The position numbers and the translations under genes are program-made. The notes under the pieces were generated by a model that saw nothing but the letters and a program-made list of their open reading frames with translations, was not told where the DNA came from and searched no databases. From assembly GCA_964599515.1 (NCBI GenBank), contig CAZRFO010000002.1:1-24790 (forward strand): a stretch of DNA of 24,790 bases. Direction: 5' to 3'. Source of the stretch: an uncultured Eggerthellaceae bacterium. GTDB lineage: Bacteria; Actinomycetota; Coriobacteriia; Coriobacteriales; Eggerthellaceae. Shown piece after piece: positions 2,144-2,401 of the stretch (positions are counted from its first letter, which is position 1; each line of letters starts with the position of its first letter).

Positions 2144-2401
2144 ATGTGCTTCAGACCAGCAGCAGTAGACCTTAATGCAGATGATTTTGGTGCCCCTGGC
2201 GTCCCCGGAGCTCCTGCAGCTCCTGGTGCTCCAAGCGCTCCTGGTGTCCCCGGTGCCCCTGCAGCCCCCGGAGTGCCGGGAGTCCCCGGTGCCCCTGGTG
2301 TACCGGGTGTACCGGGTGCCGTTGCGGCGCCTGGTGCTCCTGCAGCTCCAGGCGCGCCCGCAGCTCCCGGAGTTCCCGCAGCTCCCGACGTAGCAAATTA
2401 A
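2144..2401 (+). CDS. Small MCFRP-start protein with a (G/A)-(A/V)-P triplet repeat (85 aa)
   Basis: Strong RBS (AGAAAGGA) upstream and an intrinsic terminator directly after the stop. The amino-acid repeat is kept while synonymous codons vary, which indicates a real coding sequence. Confidence 0.8.
   Translation: MCFRPAAVDLNADDFGAPGVPGAPAAPGAPSAPGVPGAPAAPGVPGVPGAPGVPGVPGAVAAPGAPAAPGAPAAPGVPAAPDVAN
2189..2386 (+). repeat. Coding triplet repeat: 22 x 9-nt units encoding X-Y-Pro (15 Gly-first, 6 Ala-first, 1 Ser-first)
   Basis: Read from the translation GAP GVP GAP AAP GAP SAP...; 21 of 22 triplets end in Pro. Confidence 0.9.

Follow-up and report, generated by a model that had tools for sequence, protein, structure and literature searches.

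The closest described systems are the Dodh and Cldh catechol dehydroxylase operons of Gordonibacter, which encode a molybdenum (Mo) enzyme, a small 4Fe-4S protein and a major facilitator superfamily (MFS) transporter. In the sections of Maini Rekdal et al. 2020 (PMC7028382) that treat these loci, Dodh and similar enzymes of G. pamelaeae are reported to have no twin-arginine translocation (Tat) signal, to be smaller, and to be co-localised with the 4Fe-4S protein and the transporter; the soluble dehydroxylases appear there as two protein components plus a transporter, and a further small gene goes unmentioned in those sections. Here we describe a family of small proteins, defined in this analysis and named MC[F/Y]RP, whose genes sit in operons of this kind, with particular attention to the member encoded by an open reading frame (ORF) at positions 2144 to 2401 of a 24,790-nucleotide stretch of DNA (the window) from an uncultured Eggerthellaceae bacterium. 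The window also holds such an operon, adjoining the ORF. The account of Dodh differs in that its supplementary table gives the gene at the MCFRP position only as a "hypothetical protein".

Other described proteins share single features with the family. The zinc-ribbon mini-proteins of Zn_Ribbon_1 (PF13240) and DZR (PF12773) resemble canonical MCFRP proteins in carrying such a ribbon, but they have neither the MC[F/Y]RP head nor a tail with proline at every third residue, and the window protein has no ribbon at all. The private chaperones of Mo enzymes (TorD, NarJ, DmsD) are all-helical proteins of about 200 residues that bind Tat leaders; any likeness would be in function only, as small co-encoded proteins thought to bind the catalytic subunit, whereas there is no relation in sequence or fold and the MCFRP-linked enzymes have no Tat leader. 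The XPZ region of the group B streptococcal beta (Bac) protein also has proline at every third residue over tens of residues, and is said to form a polyproline-II helix. It differs in being part of a large, secreted, wall-anchored adhesin with a charged repeat, whereas the window protein is small and cytoplasmic with an uncharged Gly/Ala/Val repeat; the XPZ region of the BAC model was the only NCBIfam match for the window tail, at 28.6 against a 1700-bit cut-off, and this match is compositional. A figure legend in PMC8013792 labels XPZ a region of proline-rich repeats, with reference to Areschoug et al. 2002.

The MC[F/Y]RP proteins form a paralogous family that has no description in the literature searched and is nearly confined to the Eggerthellaceae. 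A six-frame scan of the home genome of the window (1.63 Mb in 324 contigs, 89% complete) found ten ATG-started ORFs of 77-105 residues with an MCFRP head, and a profile search added an eleventh member headed MCYRPA. Nine of the eleven carry two CPxCG knuckles between head and tail; only the window ORF and a second gene, C3:603, lack this ribbon. Residues M1, C2, R4 and P5, the four ribbon cysteines and the period-3 prolines are invariant in the alignments, as is F3 (Tyr in the MCYRP variant), although for the head this follows in part from the way members were gathered, namely by the head motif. The head did not vary in the ten paralogs of the home genome or in 59 unique ORFs, the MCYRPA variant having been seen once, and is followed by Ala or Pro (MCFRPA corresponds to residues 1-6 of the window copy). 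Tails across the family consist of 29% Pro, 28% Ala and 20% Gly, and many end in a Lys-containing ..PK(P/A)Pxx tip, which is absent from the window copy, a protein without Lys. In the AlphaFold prediction of a ribbon-bearing paralog (46 sequences), only the ribbon was modelled with confidence (about 70-76 over residues 10-35), the head reaching about 50 and the tail staying below 50.

The original prediction had proposed a pattern search for the head together with mapping of the neighbourhoods. A pattern encoding MCFRP(A/P) was found in 128 of 339 Eggerthellaceae genomes, representing 35 of 64 genera and reaching 26 copies in one genome (G237); the reversed pattern gave 0 or 1 match per genome in the same set. 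Across the phylum, the ribbon-type head pattern occurred in 4 of 401 drawn genomes, all four of them Eggerthellaceae, and in 0 of 387 outside the family, and the profile search also gave full-length matches in two other families of the order (G025, G029). The 38 true matches to a narrower DNA pattern came from Gordonibacter, Adlercreutzia, Raoultibacter, Enterorhabdus, Ellagibacter and uncultured Eggerthellaceae or Coriobacteriales; nine of the 47 stretches matching that pattern were attributed to chance (Acidobacteria, Planctomycetes and a Pseudarthrobacter, with frames of 17-32 residues or an internal Met) and were dropped before counting. Public annotation of family members is limited to "hypothetical" or "zinc-ribbon domain-containing". 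Searches of NCBIfam, the ESM Atlas and PDB sequences returned no named family and no solved relative, and literature searches returned nothing on the MCFRP motif, nothing joining a Gordonibacter dehydroxylase with a zinc ribbon, and no cryo-electron microscopy of a catechol dehydroxylase. A hidden Markov model (HMM) search of a representative library with a head-plus-ribbon profile gave 15,913 matches; the best 150 were mostly multi-zinc-ribbon proteins, and one of those listed (P0122) aligned from its N-terminus. Word-indexed protein searches found 6 and 4 proteins, and such a search for longer proteins found no fused form, which is weak evidence.

Some observations on the head itself stand apart from these counts. 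In loci with at least 58% G+C, among L009-L134, the head Arg codon (window positions 2153-2155 in the window copy) is AGA in 54 of 63 heads; among the 634 Arg codons of 18 verified neighbouring genes of those loci, 12 are AGA, and head codons 3 and 5 lean to A/T endings. This bias might stem from selection for a start that is unstructured or uses rare codons, or from an RNA-level signal. A set of acidobacterial ORFs (L035, L041, L046, L051, L057, L064, L075) ends in ..MCFRPATV(D/E)x.(L/V)P...., with the motif 17 residues before the stop; to judge from their sequences, these are the conserved C-terminus of an unrelated protein that matches the head pattern by accident.

Genomic context links the family to soluble Mo enzymes that resemble acetylene hydratase, have no Tat motif and are of the Dodh/Cldh catechol-dehydroxylase type. 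The neighbourhoods of 53 family genes were searched, namely the ten MCFRP-headed genes of the home genome (the MCYRP one excluded) and the first-listed places in six other genomes, taken without regard to context. All stop-to-stop frames around these genes were compared with an HMM built from 17 Pfam-verified Mo enzymes. A Mo-enzyme ORF lay within 1 kb of 31 of the 53 and within 300 nt of 20, where about 5-11% would be expected by chance from the 24-86 Mo genes per genome. The two genes share a strand in 29 of the 31 cases, and after correction of three open-frame overlaps 19 family genes lie directly 5' of the Mo gene and 10 follow a pair of Mo enzyme and ferredoxin (Fd) genes. The linked enzymes carry a ..WSPPGCHxVGCG.. 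motif some 20-35 residues from the start and no twin-arginine motif; among solved structures, acetylene hydratase (2e7z) is closest to them. Five genomes with 14-26 heads contain 30-52 Dodh-type paralogs at E <= 1e-60, compared with 0-3, at 30-32% identity, in five complete genomes without a head, both sets having been picked from the extremes. Within the sample, a Pfam scan of neighbours covered L094-L121, and L122-L133 were checked for Mo enzymes alone with the local HMM. Across the loci scanned, the other neighbours are LuxR, PucR and LysR regulators, FAD-dependent reductases, URO-D proteins, CobW, BcrAD-type activases and RACo, and particular subfamilies adjoin an FKBP gene (with an inserted domain and SlyD-like in at least L104) or a trigger-factor-like gene. 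The statement in the original prediction that MCFRP peptides accompany Mo-enzyme and methyltransferase genes of gut anaerobes and mostly carry zinc ribbons proved right, the organisms being Eggerthellaceae and the methyltransferases of URO-D type.

Further features of these loci were seen in passing. Four Mo enzymes preceded by an MCFRP gene (L099, L110, L122, L131) have Ser and Tyr in place of the cysteines of the N-terminal Fe-S motif (..TWSPPGSHPVGYG..), which suggests that this subgroup has lost the N-terminal Fe-S cluster. A conserved ORF of about 100 residues with no Pfam match lies between Fd and MCFRP genes, both in the home genome (L002, 7868-8167) and in another species (L030, 4405-4755). 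An orthologous group of the form MCFRPAAV(D/E)..KxCPxCGA.. is found in several genera between genes for a very large FtsX/MacB-type permease and a trigger-factor-like protein (L031, L032, L054, L069/L100, L065), away from Mo enzymes.

Family genes are probably co-induced with the Mo enzymes they accompany. The gene order in G. pamelaeae CCUG 55131 (the genome of L039) is MCFRP gene, Dodh, small Fd, 78-residue zinc-ribbon protein and MFS transporter, the Dodh gene having been recognised by the match of its product to the Dodh alignment fragment in PMC7028382. For strain 3C, the published expression data give log2 fold changes with 3,4-dihydroxyphenylacetic acid (DOPAC) of 10.27 and 7.33 for C1877_13910, a "hypothetical protein" (PMC7028382, supplementary file 2d/2e), 10.81 for C1877_13905 (dodh), 10.63 for C1877_13900 (the 4Fe-4S partner), 10.1 for C1877_13895 (hypothetical) and 11.16 for C1877_13890 (MFS) (PMC7028382). 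By gene order, compared across strains, C1877_13910 would be the MCFRP gene, with roughly 1000-fold induction by DOPAC at that position in the published data. The 78-residue zinc-ribbon ORF of the Dodh operon (L134, 4217-4453, + strand, 3' of the Fd gene) would by its position be C1877_13895; an internal GGFRPPP in this ORF echoes the family head.

Docking of the ribbon of a canonical member on the Mo subunit is supported by a predicted complex. The C3 Mo subunit of the home genome, its Fd and residues 1-60 of the upstream ribbon-bearing MCFRP protein were modelled together, each with an alignment, and the model scored 0.69 as against 0.26 for the best of three controls. The score mark is reached by 116 of 157 solved complexes and by 2 of 215 mismatched pairs, counts that hold only roughly here because own alignments and three chains were used. 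Model runs agree in at least 55% of contacts, with a predicted local distance difference test (pLDDT) value of at least 62 for the partner. On the ribbon side the confident contacts involve residues 12-13, 22-32 and 35-36; on the Mo subunit they fall at residues 163-167, 276 and 391-395 and in the stretch 567-590, which includes a block highly conserved in alignment A4. A PDB sequence search found no comparable complex.

We tentatively explain the window copy as a functional, ribbon-less variant of this family that serves Dodh-type Mo enzymes, a reading that falls just short of an even chance and is the best explanation as a whole. In canonical members, to go by the model, the zinc ribbon would plug onto the catalytic Mo subunit, and the head and the polyproline-II-like tail would remain unbound, serving as a tether or as an arm that recruits a further partner. 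Our preferred guess for canonical members is a role in maturation or in recruiting a chaperone, because FKBP genes (some clearly SlyD-like) and genes for trigger-factor-like prolyl isomerases lie nearby. The N-terminal Cys, exposed after removal of Met, may be a metal or thiol site. The modelled docking cannot apply to the window copy because the ribbon is absent; this copy would have lost the plug and kept the head, an acidic linker and the tail. It would most likely be an unanchored version of the same arm acting in trans, since the ribbon is lost and the gene follows those of a PucR-type regulator and a 63-residue zinc-knuckle protein with no predicted terminator between. In this species the neighbouring 63-residue protein may supply the zinc module.

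Several points weigh against this reading. The window copy lacks the very element used for docking in the predicted complex, and the head (residues 1-11) was left unplaced in that model. No Mo enzyme was found within 1 kb of 22 of the 53 sampled family genes, the 53 loci are not independent because they include orthologs across genera, and some family copies adjoin housekeeping genes (tRNA synthetase, sigma-70, DNA polymerase III alpha). The head-rich and head-free genomes were extremes by choice, and membership of C1877_13910 in the family is drawn from gene order in another strain. At the window itself, the nearest Mo-Fd operon, 576 nt from the ORF, is convergent rather than co-directional, and in other species of the genus the ribbon-less orthologs stand without an adjoining zinc-knuckle gene.

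The window copy is a genuine gene, and its 85-residue product is predicted to be disordered; the reality of the gene rests on a ribosome-binding site, a Met that is the earliest possible start 3' of the upstream stop, a strong terminator and ribbon-less orthologs in the genus (coordinates in Table 1). The AAAGGA of the ribosome-binding site also precedes the start of the orthologs, as seen from the 25 nt upstream. The terminator hairpin with its U run has a folding energy of -20.9 kcal/mol (z = -12.3; 0 of 200 shuffles equally good) and, flanked by A and U runs, could act in both directions. The protein consists of MCFRPAAVDLNADDF, 22 triplets and DVAN. Pro closes every triplet but one (21 of 22; the exception is GAV). 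At the first position there are 15 Gly, 6 Ala and 1 Ser, and at the middle position 15 Ala and 7 Val. Each of the four Pro codons occurs (CCT 8, CCC 8, CCA 3, CCG 3), the seven GAP units are written as five different 9-mers and the seven GVP units as six, and Tandem Repeats Finder reports only imperfect periodicity of 9, 18, 27 and 36 nt, with 68-82% matches except in one 2.4-copy stretch. With mixed codons and imperfect DNA periodicity, the regularity of the repeat lies in the protein rather than in the DNA. The amino acid sequence contains a single Cys and neither a hydrophobic stretch nor a signal peptide. Seventeen open frames with at least 12 of 22 period-3 prolines were found in the six-frame scan of the genome, the window copy being the maximum with 21; they are mostly MCFRP genes or other frames of the same repeats, and about four were unplaced on the first 40 residues. 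The proline pattern of the window copy is far beyond chance. The repeat has 72% G+C compared with 45% for the window, and ORFs in other frames or on the opposite strand (2117-2404 -, 2172-2423 -, 2175-2393 +) were rejected as true genes, being by-products of the G+C-rich repeat. The descriptive points of the original prediction stood: its counts (a 15-residue head, 22 triplets, 21 ending in Pro, 15 starting with Gly) were exact on recount, the repeat is one of protein rather than of DNA, as it had proposed, and it had correctly described a gene with its own ribosome-binding site and terminator and a product without signal peptide or anchor.

Structure prediction gave no indication of a fold. 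AlphaFold with the window protein and 13 ribbon-less relatives produced no secondary structure, with a mean pLDDT of 58 and a predicted template modelling score (pTM) of 0.16. A Pfam scan matched only Collagen (PF01391; E = 2.9e-7, 30.6 bits against a cut-off of 27.2), and Zn_Ribbon_1 (PF13240), which calls for two CxxC knuckles, had no match in this protein with its single Cys. The collagen score lies just above the gathering cut-off and the tail shares with collagen and with bacterial collagen-like proteins a triplet period with Gly and Pro; the Pro/Gly/Ala/Val composition is also elastin-like. A structural role, as a triple helix or in an elastomeric assembly, is nonetheless very improbable. 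A collagen triple helix requires Gly at every third residue, and here Gly is first in 15 of 22 triplets only, with Ala or Ser in the other seven, so that the interrupted Gly positions effectively exclude a collagen-like structure and the PF01391 score is compositional. The window protein further differs from bacterial collagen-like proteins in having no trimerisation domain and no secretion signal, the AlphaFold monomer is without structure, and the family context is one of cytoplasmic enzyme operons. A (VPGXG)n pentapeptide repeat of elastin type was rejected, the period being 3 and not 5. A polyproline-II chain rather than a collagen triple helix, as originally predicted for the tail, is reasonable because Gly is not at every third position and AlphaFold predicts no secondary structure.

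Ribbon-less forms were sought in the 339 Eggerthellaceae genomes with a pattern of the head followed by the tail within about 20 residues. Fifteen distinct genes were found in 13 genomes across 6 genera, and because heads and linkers vary from genus to genus, the ribbon appears to have been lost several times independently. Within the genus of the window, a ribbon-less gene is present in six of the nine other genomes. The sequence MCFRPATVEIDEDAMA(G/S)APG.. is common to five species, in proteins of 64-67 residues, with head and linker identical despite several synonymous DNA differences; the sixth genome, G007, matches the window at 99% identity on a contig that stops inside the repeat. These orthologs sit 3' of an orthologous PucR regulator gene and have about 70% DNA identity to the window, the same as that gene. 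Several contigs end inside the proline repeat, indicating that assemblers break there. A contig (L063, and G007:C92) that is 99% identical to window positions 1500-2362 is filed under a genus of another phylum, a label that looks doubtful, all other relatives being filed as Eggerthellaceae.

The same comparison bears on the possibility that the window copy is an evolutionary remnant: having shed its ribbon through a deletion, this paralog would now be drifting, perhaps still translated but serving no function of its own. Such a remnant would account for the lack of a predicted docking module, for a repeat number that varies between species (64 to 85 residues) as slippage would give, and for the rarity of ribbon-less forms beside several hundred heads. 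Drift is at odds, however, with an intact frame, conserved head, ribosome-binding site and terminator in 7 of 10 genomes of the genus, the home genome included, with the identical head and linker in five species, with period-3 Pro kept along the whole tail and with lineages of head and tail alone in five other genera. We regard the remnant as improbable.

Another explanation is that the product of the ribbon-less gene works not with an enzyme but with the upstream PucR-type activator, as a co-regulator, anti-activator or signal relay. Wherever a locus of the genus is sufficiently long to show it (G002, G009, L036, L038, L059, L063), a PucR ortholog is encoded 5' of the ribbon-less gene and in the same direction, and in the window no terminator is predicted between the PucR and MCFRP genes, nor around the 63-residue gene in between. 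In the AAV[D/E] subfamily, a LuxR, PucR or LysR regulator is among the two ORFs on either side in 13 of 38 loci. Such adjacency is to be expected, however, because the reductase islands of Eggerthellaceae are full of these regulators, and the gap of about 450-590 nt between the two genes in other species fits a PucR-controlled promoter as well as a partnership. Partnership with the regulator is accordingly rated unlikely, and in rough order it comes first among the rivals, followed by a Cys-based metal or thiol carrier and then the drifting remnant.

The 63-residue protein encoded between the PucR and MCFRP genes belongs to a companion family, here called MCY, whose members have 60-75 residues, start M(P)CYxCxxCG(K/A)C and end in a CPxCG..CPxCG ribbon and LPxxP. 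It has an N-terminal CxxCxxCGxC cluster, and residues 19-50 align to the MCFRP family ribbon profile (hhalign 95.6%). The home genome contains only two MCY-type genes, each beside one of its only two ribbon-less MCFRP genes; the second (C3 1153-1371, L001; 39% identity) lies 317 nt downstream of C3:603. The original prediction had correctly noted knuckles in the upstream 63-residue gene and none in the window copy, and the same pairing recurs at the second ribbon-less paralog. In other genera MCY genes are found beside ribbon-bearing MCFRP genes, often after an FKBP gene (L042/L101, L043, L048, L072), and one ORF, L130:8033, has a hybrid start, MCFRNRSS..CYVCNSCGKC. The pairing of ribbon-less MCFRP and MCY genes is suggestive for this species only, and the idea of a split protein is limited to this species and its 99%-identical relative because orthologs in other species have no adjoining zinc-knuckle gene.

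The Cys-rich start of the MCY proteins is also relevant to a role in metal or thiol handling, in which the N-terminal Cys of the MCFRP protein, with free amine and thiol after Met removal, would be the active part on a flexible arm and the ribbon would be optional. Cys2 is invariant, though in a family collected by that motif, and the motif-independent profile search found MCYRP as a variant head. Ribbon-less forms in at least 6 genera keep head and tail, ribbon-less orthologs adjoin genes for a CobW/HypB/UreG-type GTPase and a His-rich protein, and FKBP genes, some clearly SlyD-like, accompany some family members. The MCY N-terminus may resemble the N-terminal high-affinity nickel site of HypB, a protein that works with SlyD. 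A single Cys is a weak metal site, however, and the CobW neighbour is some 6 kb off in the window itself. This role appears distinctly unlikely. The original prediction had speculated on Cys2 as a metal ligand or methyl acceptor and on a scaffold role; the evidence gathered here points to an accessory function at Dodh-type Mo enzymes by way of a zinc ribbon, an element missing from the window copy.

The favoured reading of the window copy as a ribbon-less arm serving Dodh-type enzymes can be extended. The MC[F/Y]RP and MCY proteins together would be an overlooked, functionally required component of the soluble catechol dehydroxylases of gut Actinobacteria, in which the ribbon would be the plug on the Mo subunit and the N-terminal Cys and polyproline-II arm would recruit prolyl-isomerase chaperones or a metal or electron partner during maturation, with the window pair as a naturally split version. 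We consider this extended proposal rather unlikely.

The coordinates of the gene and its neighbours are given in Table 1. Over its whole length, the window encodes three Mo oxidoreductases with small Fe-S partners (one of them pyrogallol-hydroxytransferase-like with a beta subunit), four URO-D-like putative methyltransferases, three MFS transporters, two PucR regulators and a CobW-type GTPase beside an unassigned 172-residue protein, and from this gene content it is taken to be a polyphenol-metabolism island. None of the maturation enzymes of ribosomally synthesized and post-translationally modified peptides (radical SAM, YcaO, lanthipeptide synthetase and others) was present among the 19 scanned proteins of the window or the scanned family neighbours, and the reading of the ORF as a precursor of such a peptide was rejected, there being no adjacent maturation enzyme. 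The reading as a secreted or anchored surface protein was likewise rejected.

Table 1 Features of the window around the ribbon-less MC[F/Y]RP gene.
Feature	Positions	Strand	Basis
PucR-type regulator; in other species of the genus its orthologs lie 5' of the ribbon-less MCFRP gene	127..1782	+	Pfam scan, ortholog loci
63-residue zinc-knuckle protein of the companion MCY family, MPCYSCNRCGKC... + CPFCG..CPQCG	1801..1992	+	Second half matches paralog ribbons, hhalign
Ribosome-binding site GAAAGGA, 7 nt 5' of the ATG	2130..2136	+	Read from sequence
85-residue ORF, ribbon-less MC[F/Y]RP family member	2144..2401, stop included	+	ORF list, repeat counts, paralogs, orthologs
Head Met-Cys-Phe-Arg-Pro, Arg codon AGA	2144..2158	+	Invariant in alignments A1, A3, A6, A7, members motif-collected
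Acidic linker AAVDLNADDF, where paralogs carry the zinc ribbon	2159..2188	+	Alignment A1; orthologs have TVEIDEDAMA
22 triplets (G/A/S)-(A/V)-P, predicted without secondary structure	2189..2386	+	Counts and AlphaFold (pLDDT 58, no DSSP elements)
Intrinsic-terminator hairpin, A and U runs flanking, directly 3' of the stop codon	2406..2446	.	Folding
Second hairpin terminator, between convergent genes	2518..2555	.	
Convergent operon: Tat-less acetylene-hydratase-like Mo enzyme (2974-5301) and small 2x[4Fe-4S] partner (2620-2958)	2620..5301	-	

What becomes of dopamine-related metabolites, drugs, lignans and other dietary polyphenols in the human gut is decided by the Mo-dependent catechol dehydroxylases that Eggerthellaceae encode. 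If the favoured reading is true, the strongly co-induced small gene 5' of dodh would be a missing part of catechol-dehydroxylase systems, and the same would hold for its many paralogs, which number roughly one per two to four such enzymes in the genomes counted. This would be relevant to expressing, purifying or engineering catechol dehydroxylases. The family also offers a natural series (head, ribbon and tail; head and tail; ribbon alone) for asking what role a period-3 proline arm plays in a bacterial cell.

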